Shown here: in pieces, positions 36,993 to 44,880 of the stretch
How the letters are laid out: each line of letters begins with the position of its first letter
Numbering within the stretch: position 1 is the first letter of the stretch
IMG/VR virus record: IMGVR_UViG_3300043436_004750
Source of the DNA: a virus
Lineage: Duplodnaviria > Heunggongvirae > Uroviricota > Caudoviricetes
Length of the DNA: 44,880 nt
Reading direction: 5' to 3' (one strand)
Translations under genes and position numbers: made by a program
Notes under the pieces: generated by a model
Seen by the model: the letters and a program-made list of their open reading frames with translations, nothing else
What the model was told of the DNA's origin: nothing
Database searches by the model: none

Positions 36993-37034
36993 AGTTCGTA
37001 TCTTTAAGTATTATTAATAACAAATAAAAGAAAA

Positions 37035-37232
37035 ATGAAAAAAGTATTTTTAACATTAGCATTAGTAGCAGTAGTATTAGTTTCTTGTAAACAAGTAAAC
37101 ACAACTGAAACATCAACAGTAGATTCAACAGCAGTAGCAGTTGATTCAGTACAAGTTGATACAACTCAAGAAGCTGCAATCATTGAAACTGAAAAAGTTC
37201 AGGATTCAATCGACGCTGCAACTACAAAGTAA
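37035..37232 (+). CDS. small Bacteroidota-type lipoprotein
   Basis: MKK plus hydrophobic core plus lipobox LVSC; own promoter at 36975-37006. Confidence 0.8.
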   Translation: MKKVFLTLALVAVVLVSCKQVNTTETSTVDSTAVAVDSVQVDTTQEAAIIETEKVQDSIDAATTK

Positions 37233-37358
37233 TTACCAATGCTCGCTGTTAATTGAGAGGTAGAGTGTATTAATTTCCGAACAAGGGTTTATAGTAGGAA
37301 GGCGTCACTTATTGCACTCAATCAGAAACCCTGAAAGACCAAGGTTGGTAAAAAGAAG

Positions 37359-37466
37359 AATCGGTTGGTGTAAGTGGGAATGAATACCACCTAGGGTAAC
37401 ATGTTAGCTGAGATAGCATCTCTTAATTTGCTGATAGATAGAGGTTCGAATCCTCTACCGACTCCA
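37359..37466 (+). ncRNA. tRNA-like RNA with oversized, unassignable central domain
   Basis: Acceptor AATCGGT/ACCGACT, D arm GTGT/ATAC, canonical T arm AGAGG-TTCGAAT-CCTCT; about 108 nt. Confidence 0.55.
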
Positions 37467-37503
37467 AATTTTCTACCGTTCTTTGAAATAAAACTTATAA
37501 ATT

Positions 37504-37809
37504 ATGGAACAAATCTTAGCTTTTGTTTTAGGTATTGGTATAGCTGCCTTTGTATGGGCAGTTGTAGTAGTGTTTAGAACATCAAAATTAGCAAAACAGA
37601 ATGAACAAAGCATTCTAAATATAGAACAATGGGTTTCTAGAAACGATGAATTAATAAATCGTAGAATTGACCAAGAAATTGATAGAGTAAATAATCTACA
37701 TCAAGACAGTATTTCATTTACTGATTCTAGAGTAGATAAATTAGAAGCAAAACTCTTATCCGTTGATAAGGATGGTTGTGAACCAATAAAAAAATTAATA
37801 AAAGGATAA
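37504..37809 (+). CDS. membrane-anchored coiled-coil protein
   Basis: N-terminal hydrophobic helix followed by heptad repeats. Confidence 0.65.
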   Translation: MEQILAFVLGIGIAAFVWAVVVVFRTSKLAKQNEQSILNIEQWVSRNDELINRRIDQEIDRVNNLHQDSISFTDSRVDKLEAKLLSVDKDGCEPIKKLIKG

Positions 37810-37857
37810 ATTAACCCAAAGAACGGTAGTAAAATATTCCTATTTATATAAAAACAC

Positions 37858-38364
37858 ATGGCAGGAAAATTAAATACAGTAAAAAACACGTTACTTGTAA
37901 GCATTTTGAAAGAAGTAACACTTTCGGAAATATTTGACAGTAGGCCATTTAAAACATCTTTTAATATAAGACCTGGATTTGAAGCAGATTATGAAACAGA
38001 GAGCTTCAAAGACTTACAAGGAAATGCAGTAGATATCTTTTTTCTAGAATCAGGAGAAGATACGTATGAAGTAGATTTTCAAGTAAATGGAAATAGTTTT
38101 AAAGCATCTGGAGTAGAGTATAGTTTAGGGGATTATACAAGCTTACTTGCAACAGTAGCTGCAGCAGTAACACAGTTCCTAAGTAATTATGAACCCTACG
38201 GAGTAGTATTCAGAGGAGCAGATGATTTTGCATCTGTAAGTAAAAATCCTAACAAAAAAGGGCAAAAAGATAGAATATATGATTATTTCATTACACAGTT
38301 AGGAGATAATGAAAAATACAAATTAGGAAGATATCCAGACGGAATAGGTCTTCAAAGGATTTAA
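37858..38364 (+). CDS. hypothetical late protein
   Basis: 168 aa; late motif at 37840. Confidence 0.65.
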   Translation: MAGKLNTVKNTLLVSILKEVTLSEIFDSRPFKTSFNIRPGFEADYETESFKDLQGNAVDIFFLESGEDTYEVDFQVNGNSFKASGVEYSLGDYTSLLATVAAAVTQFLSNYEPYGVVFRGADDFASVSKNPNKKGQKDRIYDYFITQLGDNEKYKLGRYPDGIGLQRI

Positions 38365-38430
38365 TAGTTGGATCATAAAGTAAAAGTTCGTATATTTATA
38401 AAAGATAATAAGAAAAAAAATATAAAAATA

Positions 38431-38462
38431 GTTGGACTGGAATGGAAAAGTTCATATATTTA
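38431..38462 (+). promoter_or_regulatory. host-type (Bacteroidota-like -33/-7) promoter, representative copy
   Basis: GTTG-N20-TATATTTA; the same architecture occurs at 3602, 7224, 21483, 23611, 25226, 33810, 36975, 38367, 38699, 41954 and 42821. Confidence 0.7.
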
Positions 38463-38480
38463 TATATAGAAACAAATAAA

Positions 38481-38621
38481 ATGAAAGCAATTCAAAACAT
38501 ACATCAATTAAATCATACAGCGCAGAGAGCCATTAGTATATGGTCGGATTCGTTATGTGGTGATGTTGTTCTTGGCTTTACGTATAATAACGAACCGAAA
38601 CAAGGAGGTACCGAGGTATGA
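38481..38621 (+). CDS. 46-aa putative attenuator leader peptide (not in the ORF track)
   Basis: MKAIQNIHQLNHTAQRAISIWSDSLCGDVVLGFTYNNEPKQGGTEV*; lies between promoter and terminator. Confidence 0.65.
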   Translation: MKAIQNIHQLNHTAQRAISIWSDSLCGDVVLGFTYNNEPKQGGTEV

Positions 38622-38657
38622 TATGATATAATAAAAAATACATATTATAAATAAGGT

Positions 38658-38690
38658 ACCCGGATCAAAAAAAGATTCGGGTTTTTTATT
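38658..38690 (+). terminator. intrinsic terminator/attenuator upstream of the tRNA array
   Basis: ACCCGGATC-A7-GATTCGGGT followed by TTTTTATT. Confidence 0.8.
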
Positions 38691-38749
38691 AAAAAAAAGT
38701 TGCTAGAAAGAAATAAAGATCATATCTTTAGGTACAGAAATAAATAAGA

Positions 38750-38765
38750 GTTCATTGACATATTG
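38750..38765 (+). promoter_or_regulatory. boxA-like antitermination motif
   Basis: GTTCATTGACATATTG; near-copy GATCATTGAAATATTG at 42868, each 12-13 nt before a tRNA block. Confidence 0.55.
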
Positions 38766-38777
38766 GATAAAATTAAA

Positions 38778-38865
38778 GGAAGAGTAAGCCAAGTCGGTCT
38801 ACGGGTCGCGGTCTTGAAAACCGTTGGGTGTAACAGCCGTGTGAGTTCAAGTCTCACCTCTTCCG
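38778..38865 (+). tRNA. tRNA-Ser(TGA)
   Basis: GGAAGAG/CTCTTCC acceptor; GCGGT-CTTGAAA-ACCGT; long variable arm. Confidence 0.9.
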
Positions 38866-38871
38866 CAATAC

Positions 38872-38943
38872 TGAGTTATAGTGTAACGGTTAGCACAAAA
38901 CACTTTGACTGTTTTAGTCTAGGTTCGAATCCTAGTAGCTCAG
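38872..38943 (+). tRNA. tRNA-Gln(TTG)
   Basis: TGAGTTA/TAGCTCA; AAACA-CTTTGAC-TGTTT. Confidence 0.9.
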
Positions 38944-39158
38944 CAAATAATTGTGAGTATTGAAATCCTCTCCCAACACTTGATCAGTAAGTAGGACGGT
39001 TAGTAAAGAAAGCATTATCAGTAAGTAGTGGAGAAATCCATGCGGAGAAAACGATGCAAGACGCAAGTACAGGGAACCAGCCCGATGGCTTTGCTTACGG
39101 ACATTACAGTAGTTTTGAGATGGGCGAATTCTACTTTAAAAAAATAATCCCTTCACCA

Positions 39159-39234
39159 CTGGATGTAGAGGAGCCCGGTTTATCTCGCTAGCCTTGGACG
39201 CTAGAGCACGCAGGTTCGAATCCTGCCTACCAGA
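39159..39234 (+). tRNA. tRNA-Pro(TGG)
   Basis: CTAGC-CTTGGAC-GCTAG; two acceptor mismatches at 5:68 and 6:67. Confidence 0.8.
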
Positions 39235-39298
39235 CCGAGAGACTGTTACTAATTCATAGGAGCGTTAAAGGACTTACGCCTGCATAGAATTAGATTTT

Positions 39299-39371
39299 GC
39301 CTTCGAAGCTCATGTGGACGGGCACCGGGCTTTTAACTCGGGGGTAGCTGGTTCGAGGCCAGCCGGGGGTA
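39299..39371 (+). tRNA. tRNA-Lys(TTT)
   Basis: CCGGG-CTTTTAA-CTCGG; T loop TTCGAGG. Confidence 0.85.
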
Positions 39372-39453
39372 CGATAGTCAGATCGCAACTGGCACCAGAT
39401 AGGGTTTTTGATTCACTGTTCCCTCTGAAATAACAAAAAGACAGGAAAAGCTT

Positions 39454-39524
39454 GCCTTGTTGGCGTAATGGTAGCGTATTTGTTTTACATGCAAAGGGCG
39501 ATAGTTCGATTCTATCACAAGGTA
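39454..39524 (+). tRNA. tRNA-Val(TAC)
   Basis: GCCTTGT/ACAAGGT; TTTGT-TTTACAT-GCAAA. Confidence 0.85.
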
Positions 39525-39623
39525 CAAAATTCTGGGTAGTAAGTAAAATACCGGCAAGTATTTTCAAGTCTATAAGGAGTCTATTATGAGTTATTAATTT
39601 GCCGATGAAAGCTTGTTGTAGTT

Positions 39624-39695
39624 TCGTTCTTAGTGGAATGGTGACCACGCTGCCCGTGGAGGGTGGAGAAGCAGGTTCGATTCCTGTAGAATGAT
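39624..39695 (+). tRNA. tRNA of undetermined identity (loop CGTGGAG; TGG with G33)
   Basis: Complete cloverleaf TCGTTCT/AGAATGA, normal D and T arms; anticodon loop lacks U33. Confidence 0.55.
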
Positions 39696-39701
39696 CAAAT
39701 T

Positions 39702-39784
39702 GGGATGCTTCAGTCACTGGTGTGATAAGCGGTCTGTAAAATCGTTGCTGTAAGAAGCGTGTGGTTCGATTCCACAGTATCCCA
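39702..39784 (+). tRNA. tRNA-Tyr(GTA)
   Basis: GGGATGC/GTATCCC; GCGGT-CTGTAAA-ATCGT; long variable arm. Confidence 0.9.
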
Positions 39785-39789
39785 CAACA

Positions 39790-39862
39790 GGGTCTTTCGT
39801 ATAGATGGTTCGTACGTCCGCCTGAAGAGCGAAAGGAGCAGGTTCGATTCCTGCAGGACCCA
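39790..39862 (+). tRNA. tRNA-Phe(GAA)
   Basis: GGGTCTT/AGGACCC; loop CTGAAGA. Confidence 0.88.
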
Positions 39863-39941
39863 CGTAAGTCGCTGAAACCTTAAAACTGGCGAAATTCAAA
39901 TAAGTAAGTATTAGGTGACTATTCGGAGAGACGGATAAATT

Positions 39942-40013
39942 GGGTTTGTCGTATAAAGGTTATTACGGGTGACTGTTAATCACTTTATGAAGGTTCGATT
40001 CCTTCCAGGCCCG
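39942..40013 (+). tRNA. tRNA-Asn(GTT)
   Basis: GGGTTTG/CAGGCCC; GGTGA-CTGTTAA-TCACT. Confidence 0.9.
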
Positions 40014-40020
40014 CAAAACT

Positions 40021-40092
40021 GCTCCTATAGTAGAATGGTTAGCACACATTCCTGATAAGAATGAAAAGAAGGTTCAATTCCTTCTAGGAGTA
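40021..40092 (+). tRNA. tRNA-Ile(GAT)
   Basis: GCTCCTA/TAGGAGT; CATTC-CTGATAA-GAATG. Confidence 0.9.
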
Positions 40093-40098
40093 CAAAAT

Positions 40099-40184
40099 GG
40101 AAAGTAAAACAATCAGGGTATTGTCACCGCCTGCTAAGCGAGTGGTTCTGTAAAAGGAATGGATTTCGAATATTCTGCTTTCCG
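40099..40184 (+). tRNA. tRNA-Ser(GCT)
   Basis: GGAAAGT/GCTTTCC; loop CTGCTAA; long variable arm; T53-A61 instead of G53-C61. Confidence 0.8.
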
Positions 40185-40189
40185 CAATT

Positions 40190-40257
40190 ACCGAGAGGTC
40201 AAGGACCATGGATGGCTCATATCCAACCATAGAATGGAGCATTACCATTTCTCGGTA
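40190..40257 (+). tRNA. atypical 68-nt tRNA(CAT), possibly elongator Met
   Basis: ACCGAGA/TCTCGGT; minimal D hairpin GGTC-AAG-GACC; loop CTCATAT; T arm AATGG-AGCATTA-CCATT. Confidence 0.6.
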
Positions 40258-40264
40258 CTAACAT

Positions 40265-40338
40265 GGTGATTGTAGCTGAATTGGTAAAGCGTCTGATTGT
40301 GGTTCAGGAGATTGTGGGTTCGAGTCCCATCTTTCACA
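40265..40338 (+). tRNA. tRNA-His(GTG)
   Basis: Encoded G-1; TCTGA-TTGTGGT-TCAGG; acceptor mismatches at 5:68 and 6:67; A73. Confidence 0.82.
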
Positions 40339-40344
40339 CAAAAT

Positions 40345-40418
40345 ACCTCCGTGATGGAACTGGAATACATATCGATCTTAAACGTCGAGTTTTGAGGGTT
40401 CGAATCCCTTCGGAGGTA
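40345..40418 (+). tRNA. tRNA-Leu(TAA), short variable arm
   Basis: ACCTCCG/CGGAGGT; TCGAT-CTTAAAC-GTCGA. Confidence 0.85.
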
Positions 40419-40464
40419 CTGTAGACTTTTTGAAATATTAGCCTATTTATAATAAAGAATAAGT

Positions 40465-41118
40465 ATGGCTAATATCAAAGAGAATAAGAAATACCATTTC
40501 ACTTATAAGACAACAAATCTTATAAACAATAAGTACTACTTGGGAATGCATTCAACTAACCATCTAGATGACGGTTACTTAGGAAGCGGTAAGAGGTTGT
40601 ACTACGAACTAAATAAGTACGGTAGAGACAATTTTAAATTTGAAATACTGGAACAATTTGATTCGAGAGAAGAATTAGTTCAAGCTGAGATTAAGTTAAT
40701 AACAGAGCAGGATTTAACTAATCAAAACTGTTTAAATCTAAGTAGAGGAGGTAGTGGAGGTATTCATAACGAAGAGCATTACGCAGCTTTTTCAAAAGGA
40801 AGAGAACAAAGTAGCTCCAGAGGCGGAATCACTTCTCAAAAAAGGTTTAGGAACAACCCAGAAGAAGTTAAGAGAAGAGCCTTTTTACAGGGAAAGTCTT
40901 TAACTAGATACTACGAGGAAAGACCAGGTACCTTCAAAGGGAAGGTACATACATCTGAAACTATTAATAAGATGAAACAGTCCAAACAAAATCAAGGAAG
41001 AGGAGAGGATAACTCACAGTACGGTACTTGTTGGATAACAAATGAAAAAGAGAATACAAAAATACGCAAAGGAGATACAATCCCAGAAGGATGGAGATTG
41101 GGAAGAAAATTAAAATAA
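40465..41118 (+). CDS. Seg-like GIY-YIG homing endonuclease in the tRNA array
   Basis: HFTYKTTNLINNKYYLGMHST...YLGSG; NUMOD3-like HTSETINKM. Confidence 0.85.
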   Translation: MANIKENKKYHFTYKTTNLINNKYYLGMHSTNHLDDGYLGSGKRLYYELNKYGRDNFKFEILEQFDSREELVQAEIKLITEQDLTNQNCLNLSRGGSGGIHNEEHYAAFSKGREQSSSRGGITSQKRFRNNPEEVKRRAFLQGKSLTRYYEERPGTFKGKVHTSETINKMKQSKQNQGRGEDNSQYGTCWITNEKENTKIRKGDTIPEGWRLGRKLK

Positions 41119-41120
41119 CT

Positions 41121-41192
41121 GGTCTTATAGTTTAATTGGAAAAACTTATCGCTACGAACGATAGAATTCAGGTTCGAGACCTGATAGGACCT
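41121..41192 (+). tRNA. tRNA-Arg(ACG)
   Basis: GGTCTTA/TAGGACC; TATCG-CTACGAA-CGATA. Confidence 0.9.
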
Positions 41193-41197
41193 CAACT

Positions 41198-41268
41198 GCC
41201 CGTATAGTTCAAAGGAAGAACATATCTCTTCTAAAGATAGAATCCTGGTTCGAGTCCAGGTATGGGTT
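41198..41268 (+). tRNA. tRNA-Arg(TCT)
   Basis: GCCCGTA/TATGGGT; TATCT-CTTCTAA-AGATA. Confidence 0.9.
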
Positions 41269-41341
41269 CAAAAATCGTCTCATCATATTGAGTTAATTAG
41301 AAGATACATCTCTAAGTAGGTTAAACGATATCCTACAAAAT

Positions 41342-41413
41342 GCAAGTGAGGCTGAGGTAGCCGATGGAACTCCAAATCCCATGTTCGAGCAGGTTCGATT
41401 CCTGCCATTTGCG
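41342..41413 (+). tRNA. tRNA-Trp(CCA)
   Basis: GCAAGTG/CATTTGC; loop CTCCAAA; short D loop. Confidence 0.8.
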
Positions 41414-41447
41414 CAAAATATATTGTTTCATTAAAAATTAAGAAATC

Positions 41448-41954
41448 ATGAGTAAGTACCAAAAAACACTAGTAGTGGATTCAAGCTTTATCGCCCGGAG
41501 TATCATCTCAACAGAAAGAGCATTTGTGATTTCTTATAAAGGTAATGCAGAGGTAATAGCAGAACATCCAGAAACATTTGGATTAGTAAATCCAAATCTA
41601 GAGATTTACAAACCTTCTATTATTAGAGTATTTACATACGTAAAGCAGCATATACATAAAGTTCCACTAACAAGAGAAAACATCTATAAAAGAGATAATT
41701 ATGAATGTGTTTATTGTGGGAGTTCAAATCAAAGAACATTAACACTTGATCACGTTATCCCTCAATCAAAAGGAGGAAAAGATACTTGGGATAATTTAGT
41801 AACAGCATGCCGTACATGCAACCATGAAAAAGCAGATCTAACGTTAGAGGAATACGGTAAGGATATACCTGAACCAAAACGTCCACATTATTTAATGTTA
41901 CTAAGACAGGTTCAAGAAATGCCAAAAGAATGGGAAACATTTTTACTATTTTAG
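41448..41954 (+). CDS. HNH endonuclease (McrA-like family)
   Basis: RDNYECVYCG...LTLDHVIPQSKGGKDTWDNLVTACRTCNHEK. Confidence 0.9.
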   Translation: MSKYQKTLVVDSSFIARSIISTERAFVISYKGNAEVIAEHPETFGLVNPNLEIYKPSIIRVFTYVKQHIHKVPLTRENIYKRDNYECVYCGSSNQRTLTLDHVIPQSKGGKDTWDNLVTACRTCNHEKADLTLEEYGKDIPEPKRPHYLMLLRQVQEMPKEWETFLLF

Positions 41955-42154
41955 TTGGCTATTGCAAAATAATTTCTTATATTTAGGTATAATTAAAGAG
42001 ATACAAAAATCGGAATTGACCGAGGCACGTGGTTAACGGTATTGCACCGACTCGCTTAAGCCCTAAGAGCACTTTAATTTTAAATATAAAATACCTGCTA
42101 CGTAACGCACGATCGACGACACGTACTATCTGGAAAGTCAGATCAGGTAAATTT

Positions 42155-42225
42155 GGGCGATTGGTCGATTGGTTAGGCGCAGGATTGCAAACTCTGTTAG
42201 GTTGGTTCGATTCCAACATTGCCCT
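42155..42225 (+). tRNA. tRNA-Cys(GCA)
   Basis: GGGCGAT/ATTGCCC; loop TTGCAAA; U73. Confidence 0.85.
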
Positions 42226-42240
42226 CAAAAAAATCAAAAT

Positions 42241-42696
42241 ATGATAAAATTAGTAGATCTTTTAAAAGAAGTAGTAGATTTATATTTACCTAATGAATTA
42301 CATAGTAAAGATATTTCTATTGAGGTTAAAGAAGAGAATAAAAGAAAGTTTAAAGTAATATTAACATATAAAGATAATTATTACGAATTTATAGCACTCC
42401 CTTTACTAAATCCTAAAAGACCATCAATCAATTTTGGAGATACTGACAAACAAGGAATTAATTTAAACTTAAACAATTTATTAAATTCTCCACATTCTCC
42501 CAGAATATTAGCAGCTATTTTTGGACTATTGAGATATTGGGTTGACAAGTATGATATACGGGAATTTGAATATGGAGCTGAAGGTAATATAAGAACCAAA
42601 TTATACGATATGTACTTAACAAAACATTTTCCTGATTTCGAAAATTCACAAGAGAAATACGGAGAACATACACTACAGATATGGACCAAGAAGTAA
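42241..42696 (+). CDS. hypothetical protein
   Basis: ATG at 42241 (MIKLVDLLKE) preferred because the track start at 42169 lies inside tRNA-Cys. Confidence 0.7.
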   Translation: MIKLVDLLKEVVDLYLPNELHSKDISIEVKEENKRKFKVILTYKDNYYEFIALPLLNPKRPSINFGDTDKQGINLNLNNLLNSPHSPRILAAIFGLLRYWVDKYDIREFEYGAEGNIRTKLYDMYLTKHFPDFENSQEKYGEHTLQIWTKK

Positions 42697-42833
42697 TTTT
42701 AGTTAGGAAATTAGAACTCTTACAACATATTGAAAGAATATATAATATTGAAATAGGAGATGATGAAATAGAATTAATAATAACTTTTGAAGATTTAATT
42801 AACTTAGTTATTAAAAAAAGTTTGGCTATCTAA
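42681..42833 (+). CDS. 50-aa ORF resembling the C-terminal half of an acyl carrier protein (not in the ORF track)
   Basis: MDQEVILVRKLELLQHIERIYNIEIGDDEIELIITFEDLINLVIKKSLAI*; lacks the DSL serine. Confidence 0.45.
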   Translation: MDQEVILVRKLELLQHIERIYNIEIGDDEIELIITFEDLINLVIKKSLAI

Positions 42834-42896
42834 ATTATTTTTCATATATTTAGATATAAGAAAGTAAGATCATTGAAATATTGGATAAAATAAATT

Positions 42897-42972
42897 GCAC
42901 TTGTGGGCAAACTGGCAAAGCCGTCTGACTTAGAATCAGAAGATGTTGTGGGTTCGACTCCCACCAGGTGTA
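42897..42972 (+). tRNA. tRNA-Leu(TAG), short variable arm
   Basis: GCACTTG/CAGGTGT; TCTGA-CTTAGAA-TCAGA. Confidence 0.88.
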
Positions 42973-43169
42973 CAAAATTTAAAATCACTTGCTTGAAGAT
43001 AAACAGCTAATTTTACGTGGTGCTATCCTATTAAAAAAGAGTAAATATGCATATTAAACTGTACTAGCAGTTGTGTTTATTGTAGAGATATGAGGAGATG
43101 TCTACAGCTAGTGTAAGTCTAGCAATTTATATTCCACTAGAATTTGGACAAGTGATTTAAAATAAAAAT

Positions 43170-43234
43170 TAGAGTTAGCTTATAGTAAAGCAGCGGGGGC
43201 TAACCTGCAGAACGGATACGAAAACCGACTCTAA
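43170..43234 (+). ncRNA. degenerate tRNA-like cloverleaf
   Basis: TAGAGTT/GACTCTA; GCTT/AAGC D arm; GCGGG-GGCTAA-CCTGC; weak T arm with TACGAAA loop. Confidence 0.4.
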
Positions 43235-43240
43235 TTATCT

Positions 43241-43314
43241 GCTTCTGACGCATGAACGGTGGTGCACCTGATTTGTAACCAGGAATAGAGTCGGTTCGAT
43301 CCCGACCAGAAGCT
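43241..43314 (+). tRNA. tRNA-Thr(TGT)
   Basis: GCTTCTG/CAGAAGC; loop TTTGTAA. Confidence 0.88.
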
Positions 43315-43409
43315 CAAAGTGTTGTTCCCTTGAGAAAGGAAAATAGAGTGGCTACACGGTTGTTGCAACAACTAGTAAAGACTAGCACAGAGGAACTCAA
43401 CCTCAAACT

Positions 43410-43481
43410 GCGAGTGTAGTATAACGGCTATTATGCCTGGCTTCCAACCAGGAGATGGGGTTTCGATTACCCCCATTCGCT
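43410..43481 (+). tRNA. tRNA-Gly(TCC)
   Basis: GCGAGTG/CATTCGC; CCTGG-CTTCCAA-CCAGG; T53-A61. Confidence 0.88.
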
Positions 43482-43532
43482 CAGGGGTGTGTGGGAACCC
43501 GTGAATATGTGATGAGCATACACCCACAATTT

Positions 43533-43604
43533 GCTACCGTCGTCTAATGGCCAGGACACAACACTTTCACTGTTGAAATGGGAGTTCGATTCTCCTCGGT
43601 AGTG
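43533..43604 (+). tRNA. tRNA-Glu(TTC)
   Basis: GCTACCG/CGGTAGT; CAACA-CTTTCAC-TGTTG. Confidence 0.9.
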
Positions 43605-43669
43605 CAAAATCCTATAGTAGGGTAGATGGAAGGTGCTAGTCAATAGCAAGCCGCTACTGTAGGTAAACT

Positions 43670-43744
43670 GGGGGCACATGTACCAAGGCTTGGCGAAAAA
43701 CACTTGCAATGTTTCTGTGATGGGTTCGATTCCCATTGTCTCCA
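43670..43744 (+). tRNA. tRNA-Ala(TGC)
   Basis: GGGGGCA/TGTCTCC with G3:U70; AAACA-CTTGCAA-TGTTT. Confidence 0.9.
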
Positions 43745-43790
43745 CTGTAGACTTTTTGAAAAGTTAGCCTATTTATTATAAAAGATAGAT

Positions 43791-44438
43791 ATGGCTAACA
43801 TTAAAGAGAATAAAAGATTTCATTTTACTTATAAGACAACAAATCTTATAAATGGAAGATATTATCTGGGAATGCATTCAACTAATCGTTTAGATGACGG
43901 TTATTTGGGAAGTGGTAAGAGACTGTACTATGAGTTGAATAAATACGGCAGAGACAATTTTAAATTTGAAATACTGAAGCAATTTGAATCAAGAGAACAA
44001 TTAGTTCAAGCTGAAATAAAATTAATAACAGAACACGATTTAAAAAATCCAAACTGCTTAAATTGTAAACCAGGAGGCGAAGGAGGGTTCCTAGATAGTA
44101 CTAGAATGGATAATGCAGAAAGGAAGCGCAGGTTTCTTGATAAGATGAGTAACGATAGTGAGTATAGGGAAGGATTTTTAGATAAGTGTAGGGAAAACTA
44201 CCCTAAGACCTTAGGAAAATATAAAGCATTAGGAACTCACGATTATGCAACTTTTAAAGGAAAAAAGCATACACCTGAAACTATTGAGAAAATGAAAGAG
44301 AGTAAGAAGGATTACGGAAAAGGATCTACAAATTCTCAATACGGAACTTGTTGGATAACAAATGAAGTTGAAAATAAAAAAATATACAAAGGCGACTCAA
44401 TTCCTCAAGGATGGAAATTGGGAAGGAAATTAAAATAA
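43791..44438 (+). CDS. Seg-like GIY-YIG homing endonuclease, paralogue of 40465-41118
   Basis: HFTYKTTNLINGRYYLGMHST...YLGSG; shared C-terminus NSQYGTCWITNE...GRKLK. Confidence 0.85.
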   Translation: MANIKENKRFHFTYKTTNLINGRYYLGMHSTNRLDDGYLGSGKRLYYELNKYGRDNFKFEILKQFESREQLVQAEIKLITEHDLKNPNCLNCKPGGEGGFLDSTRMDNAERKRRFLDKMSNDSEYREGFLDKCRENYPKTLGKYKALGTHDYATFKGKKHTPETIEKMKESKKDYGKGSTNSQYGTCWITNEVENKKIYKGDSIPQGWKLGRKLK

Positions 44439-44442
44439 TTTT

Positions 44443-44514
44443 AGTCTATTGGTCCAGGGGAATGGATGCCTGCCTGTCACGTAGGAGACCCGGGTTCGAA
44501 TCCCGGATAGACCG
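44443..44514 (+). tRNA. tRNA-Asp(GTC)
   Basis: CCTGC-CTGTCAC-GTAGG; A1:C72 mismatch; G73. Confidence 0.85.
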
Positions 44515-44521
44515 CAACAAT

Positions 44522-44597
44522 GGCGGGTGGATCCGGTTGGTATCGGGGGTAGTCTCATAAGCTACATTAAAGGAGGTTCGATTCCTCCACGTCGCAA
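44522..44597 (+). tRNA. initiator-like tRNA-fMet(CAT)
   Basis: GTAGT-CTCATAA-GCTAC; unpaired 1:72 and a bulged acceptor stem. Confidence 0.7.
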
Positions 44598-44786
44598 CAA
44601 AGCCGGTTTTGACACTCCGCTCATGGGAGGTCAGTTTTCTGGAGGAGAAAATTGGGATGCAGCATTGAGGGTTTTAAAAGTTTGTACCGACAAAGAATGG
44701 GTTTTGCCTGCAAAGCGTGTTTACGCCTTATAAACACAACTTGAAAATAGAAAGGGGTGTAGGTCAGCTTTAACCGAACCCTATTT

Positions 44787-44859
44787 GGACCTGTAGCTCA
44801 GTGGTAAGAGCGCCCGCCTCATAAGCGGAGGGTCGGAGGTTCAAATCCTCCCTGGTCCA
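44787..44859 (+). tRNA. tRNA(CAT), probably Ile2 (lysidine type)
   Basis: GGACCTG/CTGGTCC; TAGCTCAG D arm; loop CTCATAA; A73. Ile2 versus Met is an inference. Confidence 0.8.
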
Positions 44860-44880
44860 CAAAAATATTTTATCCAATAA

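Follow-up and report, generated by a model that had tools for sequence, protein, structure and literature searches.

In classical leader-peptide transcription attenuators of amino-acid operons, such as E. coli trpL, hisL, pheL, thrL, leuL and ilvL and the Bacteroidetes trp leader motif, a short translated ORF is followed by an intrinsic terminator, an alternative pairing competes with this terminator, and the position of the ribosome decides which structure forms, with stalling giving read-through. Cases of this kind have been reported for Flavobacterium (PMC9723704). The pheST attenuator of E. coli, with its pheM leader, is a cellular example in which a component of the decoding machinery rather than a biosynthetic pathway is controlled, although it senses Phe only and regulates a synthetase. 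Leader ORFs of antibiotic resistance genes (vmlR, mef/mel-msrD; PMC9226507, PMC4335068) switch a terminator to an antiterminator when general interference with elongation stalls the ribosome, but respond to drug-bound ribosomes at particular nascent-peptide contexts. T-box riboswitches also couple tRNA charging status to read-through of a terminator upstream of translation-related genes, but bind one uncharged tRNA directly, have no ORF, and are not expected in Bacteroidetes. In phages, tRNA arrays have been considered as a counter to tRNA-targeting defences (PMC10264068), where phage tRNAs replace host tRNAs that are depleted or cleaved during infection. Here we describe a conserved phage leader ORF that contains all 20 amino acids, lies directly upstream of a tRNA array and has features of a leader-peptide attenuator. 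Full-text literature searches returned no report of a sensing leader or leader ORF upstream of a phage tRNA array.

The locus was identified in a 44,880-nucleotide Flavobacterium-phage-like contig (IMG/VR record IMGVR_UViG_3300043436_004750; hereafter the window), the nearest isolate of which is Flavobacterium phage vB_FspM_immuto, with about 80% nucleotide identity over part of the window. Near-identical DNA is present in lake-water metagenomes. All elements proposed in an earlier note, which had been made from the sequence alone, were confirmed, and the elements from the first promoter to the tRNA array are on the plus strand. Two tandem promoter motifs of the Bacteroidetes type (TTG-N20-TAnnTTT) lie at 38368-38397 (P1, predicted start about 38403) and 38432-38461 (P2, predicted start about 38467), and a third (P3, predicted start about 38735) lies at 38700-38729. 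These motifs match the sigma-A -7 box TAnnTTTG at -12 to -5 described for Flavobacterium (PMC9723704), which gives transcripts from P2 a 14-nt A-rich 5' UTR. The ORF (38481-38621, ATG to TGA) encodes 46 aa with all 20 amino acids and 33 different codons. The chance of all 20 kinds in 46 residues is 0.0086 from composition and 0.0062 in real 46-aa windows taken from the ORFs of the window. Notably, five NCG codons are present (GCG, TCG twice, ACG and CCG), whereas NCG makes up 1.0% of codons in 32 long ORFs of the window (binomial P about 9e-5 for 5 or more in 45); GGC and GCC are also rare.

Downstream of the terminator and P3, a tRNA array at 38778-44860 starts with tRNA-Ser(UGA). ARAGORN identified 21 tRNAs, and Rfam added tRNA-Thr(UGU) at 43241-43314 (41 bits) and tRNA-Ala(UGC) at 43672-43744 (34 bits), with anticodons read from the sequence, so that the 23 tRNAs cover all 20 amino acids. 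ORFs of 168-217 aa interrupt the array at 40465-41118, 41448-41954 and 43791-44438, and further host-type promoter motifs lie at 41955 and 42822, indicating that the array is probably several transcription units. One array slot, between tRNA-Val and tRNA-Tyr (39624-39696 in the window), appears to hold a fast-evolving or anticodon-switching tRNA: it is Pro(UGG) in the window and in L007 (L numbers denote related loci), Pro(CGG) in L013, Ser(CGA) in L023, Ser(UGA) in L035, Phe(AAA) in L041 and Leu(UAA) in L025. A 24-nt box of unknown function (GAGTTCATTGACATATTGGATAAA) at 38748-38771 is nearly invariant just 5' of the first tRNA in relatives and is the most conserved stretch of the whole region; a second copy at 42866-42889 follows another promoter and precedes tRNA-Leu. 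At both places the box follows a host-type promoter by about 15-20 nt and ends 6-8 nt before a tRNA. Between P3 and this box, L006, L018, L022, L023, L031 and L047 carry a tRNA-like element of about 130 nt (for example L023:4700-4840) with a 7-bp acceptor-like stem (GGGGCGG...CTGCTCCA) and two T-arm-like hairpins, which is not called by ARAGORN and is absent from the window at this place. Upstream of the 101-aa gene that neighbours the leader, a tRNA-like gene with an oversized middle part lies at 37359-37466 (L001:3247-3332). Rfam gives only a partial tRNA hit of 21.6 bits at 37403-37458, the homologous 86-nt stretch is annotated as tRNA-Cys in the immuto record, and in relatives ARAGORN calls Leu(CAG), Leu(GAG), Ile(UAU), Met or Pro(AGG) at the same place.

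To evaluate the conservation of the leader ORF, we collected loci using the neighbouring 101-aa gene as an anchor and then the peptide itself, yielding 43 and 48 IMG/VR loci, 60 metagenome loci and 119 protein clusters. The ORF belongs to a family of at least 184 distinct peptides of 44-58 aa from freshwater and marine Flavobacterium-type phage contigs. In every locus with enough downstream sequence (48/48 from IMG/VR and 45/45 from metagenomes), a plus-strand tRNA, usually tRNA-Ser(UGA), follows the ORF by 65-866 nt. This holds when other genes are inserted upstream and when the anchor gene lies about 40 kb away on the same contig (L010/L074, L002/L078). All indels inside the ORF are multiples of three and the stop position is fixed, whereas the spacer after the stop has 1-2 nt indels; the ORF is therefore under selection as a reading frame. 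A promoter of the P2 type precedes the ORF in relatives. However, a blastn search of GenBank phages with 38300-38800 found nothing, and immuto has an unrelated 51-aa ORF (18 kinds of amino acid, no terminator) in front of its tRNA-Ser, which neither supports nor refutes the proposed function. The 46-aa product has no Pfam or PHROG match at E <= 0.1, and AlphaFold2 with 103 homologues gave no confident fold (pLDDT 55, pTM 0.16). An Rfam search of 37000-38900 at E <= 1 returned only tRNA hits and a chance-level partial hit to DUF2693 RNA, with no leader family or T-box.

Of the 184 distinct peptides, 166 contain all 20 amino acids and the rest lack one. Sampling each alignment column independently predicts 75% with all 20, so ordinary site conservation explains most of this retention, but not all of it. 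The excess comes mainly from His, which is expected to be missing in 11.9% and is observed missing in 1.6%. The usual His (codon 8) is replaced by Gln in 25 peptides, of which 22 have a His elsewhere, spread over seven different alignment columns (six in the N-terminal part, two near the C terminus; one peptide has two), whereas only 5 of 159 peptides that keep His8 have a second one. Intermediates with two His exist, including the window's own peptide, and we count at least 6 His relocations, without correction for phylogeny. Trp has moved twice, once into an inserted segment and once onto the Cys codon. However, Cys is lost without replacement in 6 peptides and Arg in 4, so the rule is strong but not absolute, and leader composition does not correlate with tRNA repertoire, since the Cys-less leader of L034 still has a tRNA-Cys in its array. 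In relatives the 20th kind is reached at the EPK motif at codon 38-44, leaving 5-7 codons that add none; in the window all 20 kinds lie within codons 1-40 (38481-38600), together with the conserved rare codons TCG, TCG, GGC and CCG. No run of any codon is present, and 6-10 kinds occur exactly once in nearly all variants.

The intrinsic terminator (38658-38690) comprises a 9-bp stem, a 7-nt A loop and a U tract, and is present in 85 of 86 unique loci with three covarying pairs. In the window, the ORF tail (codons 41-46 plus TGA, 38601-38621) carries GGTACC at 38607-38612, which can pair with GGTACC at 38655-38660, the last 3 nt of which form the base of the terminator stem. This pairing surrounds an inner hairpin (38617-38649) that encloses the stop codon, is present in all subtypes and shows one compensatory A-U to G-C change in L115; the 111-nt fold has z = -4.7. 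The leader's TGA also overlaps an ATG that opens a two-codon mini-ORF (ATG-ATA-TGA, 38618-38626). The mini-ORF is found in 76 of 83 unique related loci, with TAA in 41, TAG in 23 and TGA in 12 and never the sense codon TGG, although the same bases form the 5' strand of the stop-codon hairpin and the conservation may be structural.

RNAalifold on 19 and 38 aligned transcripts recovered only the terminator, since the register of the antiterminator differs by 2 nt between sequence classes, and we therefore tested the alternative pairing without relying on columns. The last 5-8 codons are complementary to the terminator 5' arm in every locus. Tails with CCGAG face arms with CTCGG, CCGGG faces CCCGG (or CTCGG through a G-U pair), GATCTGGG faces CCCGGATC or CCCAGATC, GATTTGGG faces CCCAAATC, and in the window subtype GGTACC faces the GGTACC flank. 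In this last subtype a CCGAG tail would mismatch the CCCGG arm, and all 11 such loci carry the GGTACC repeat instead. No incompatible combination occurs in 85 loci, and random re-pairing of tails and arms among 47 unique combinations never reached the observed mean duplex energy in 20,000 trials (P about 5e-5). When the segment from the tail to the 5' arm was folded without the 3' arm, the arm paired with the tail in the MFE of 71 of 71 unique sequences, and the fold also held a hairpin containing the stop codon. The tail is the best partner of the arm within the ORF in 69 of 81 loci, and a fixed-register count on 38 sequences gave 84% of cells paired and 12 double-change cells, which 0 of 500 shuffles reached. 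These statistics are not corrected for phylogeny, and we estimate 4-6 independent compensatory events in the helix. The amino acids encoded by the tail vary between classes (QGGTEV, QGKTGV, TTKTGI, QDTDLG), as expected if the RNA rather than the peptide is constrained. Because the 5' arm cannot pair with the tail and the 3' arm at once, two exclusive structures are both under selection, which is the signature of an attenuator. The tail strand lies 2-12 nt before the stop codon, which, given the usual extent of a ribosome footprint, would place it under a terminating ribosome.

Based on these comparative and structural data, we propose that the element is more likely than not a ribosome-dependent transcription attenuator, with translation, stalling, ribosome-polymerase coupling and read-through all inferred. 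In this model, host RNA polymerase starts at P1/P2 and a ribosome translates the leader. If decoding of codons 1-40 is smooth, the ribosome would sit on the last codons and the stop codon while the terminator is transcribed, melting the stop-codon hairpin and covering the 5' strand of the antiterminator, so that the full terminator forms and the transcript ends at about 38690. If the ribosome lags or stalls anywhere in the sensor part, for example because a charged tRNA is short, tRNAs have been cleaved or translation is inhibited, the free tail would pair with the 5' arm, sequestering the base of the terminator stem, and polymerase would read on through P3 into the array. The three comparative checks suggested in the earlier note, namely a homologous short ORF upstream of related arrays, full amino-acid coverage and covarying hairpins, all came back positive. 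Its concern that the overlap with the terminator is only 3 nt applies to the window's own subtype, where the trimmed terminator persists even in the equilibrium fold, whereas other subtypes overlap by 5-8 nt; in every subtype the overlap covers the stem base next to the U tract. In most subtypes, however, the full terminator is 7-10 kcal/mol more stable than the antiterminator domain, so antitermination would have to be kinetic.

The second concern of the note, that a promoter follows the terminator, stands and is general, since 78 of 81 loci have a promoter between terminator and array. Read-through therefore most likely adds to array transcription rather than gating it, and the leader unit could be self-contained. 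Three natural variants have no promoter between the leader and the first tRNA, namely L004/L082, L137, and L047, which has also lost the terminator's 3' arm; this suggests that their first tRNA would have to be transcribed from the leader promoter. Contigs from an RNA library cover the ORF and bridge the terminator (38575-38696 and 38667-38773), none covers 38300-38367, and coverage rises near the predicted P1 start, but this is weak evidence because such contigs may include DNA and come from relatives. In contrast to classical attenuators, the element has a full amino-acid set instead of a run of codons for one amino acid, is carried by a phage and precedes tRNA genes rather than biosynthetic enzymes. 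No separate 1:2 anti-antiterminator hairpin was found, so absence of translation should also give read-through.

Other explanations appear less likely. The peptide itself could be the product of an autonomous small gene, for example a counter-defence or regulatory peptide related to tRNA biology, that travels with the array as part of one early module, its all-20 composition being an inherited accident. This is consistent with the unit having its own promoter and strong terminator, with P3-type promoters in 78 of 81 loci, with the strongly conserved blocks WSDSLC and YNNEPK, which together with their frozen rare codons are not explained by the attenuator model, and with an ORF evolving at about the same rate as the neighbouring 101-aa gene (aa identity 0.66 against 0.63), as well as with the 75% expectation from column conservation. 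We consider it unlikely, since it does not explain why the tail covaries with a terminator arm that cannot pair with both partners at once, why the tail's amino acids are free to change, why His and Trp are kept irrespective of position, or why three loci have no other promoter for the first tRNA, and neither a confident fold nor a family match was obtained. The view that the terminator merely insulates the array from upstream transcription, with incidental tail complementarity, draws on the terminator being the only element with classical column-wise covariation and on P3 following it. It is very improbable, because tail and arm change together across five sequence classes and the ORF and its composition are conserved, neither of which insulation needs.

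Alternatively, the abundant terminated transcript of about 220-290 nt could act in trans as a small RNA or a ribosome/tRNA sponge, with the ORF secondary, as for the attenuator-derived rnTrpL of Sinorhizobium (PMC6614838). The tandem strong promoters, the strong terminator, a window transcript that folds well below shuffles (z = -4.8) and many frozen synonymous sites, including rare codons (TCG 71/74 and 65/65 Ser, GGC 80/82, CCG 75/80), are compatible with this reading, which nevertheless remains improbable. No conserved helix was found by RNAalifold in the ORF apart from the terminator, and the long hairpin inside the ORF in the window's MFE is not conserved. A candidate 8-12 bp helix between UUCGUUAU (codons 23-26) and AUAACGAA (codons 36-38), which could have explained the frozen rare codons or acted as a pause hairpin, has a mean pairing probability of 0.23 (0.07 in the window), is broken without compensation in 22 of 78 sequences and is not supported, and TCGGATTCG (codons 22-24) does not covary with the terminator arms when these change. 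Moreover, the reading frame is strictly kept through many indels, and overall codon identity is only slightly above that of the neighbouring gene (0.87 against 0.80), which is not distinctive. The rare codons may tune decoding speed, but this is speculative.

More tentatively, the element may be a phage-encoded sensor of overall decoding capacity. Since the leader carries one or two codons of every amino acid, several of them rare, shortage or cleavage of any tRNA through host shut-off, anticodon nucleases or starvation would delay the pioneer ribosome, and transcription from strong early promoters would flow into a complete 20-amino-acid tRNA set. This would be an inducible counter-measure to tRNA-targeting defence and the first attenuator known to control tRNA genes. 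The family is abundant in lake and marine metagenomes and offers natural mutants in which the terminator arm is deleted or the downstream promoter is absent. Why phages carry large tRNA sets, and how these are expressed, is still debated. A leader that reads out the supply of all 20 aminoacyl-tRNAs and feeds back on a complete array would show that a phage monitors translation capacity and responds to it, would link tRNA arrays to tRNA-targeting defences, and would extend leader-peptide attenuation from single-amino-acid sensing of biosynthetic operons to general sensing that controls non-coding genes.
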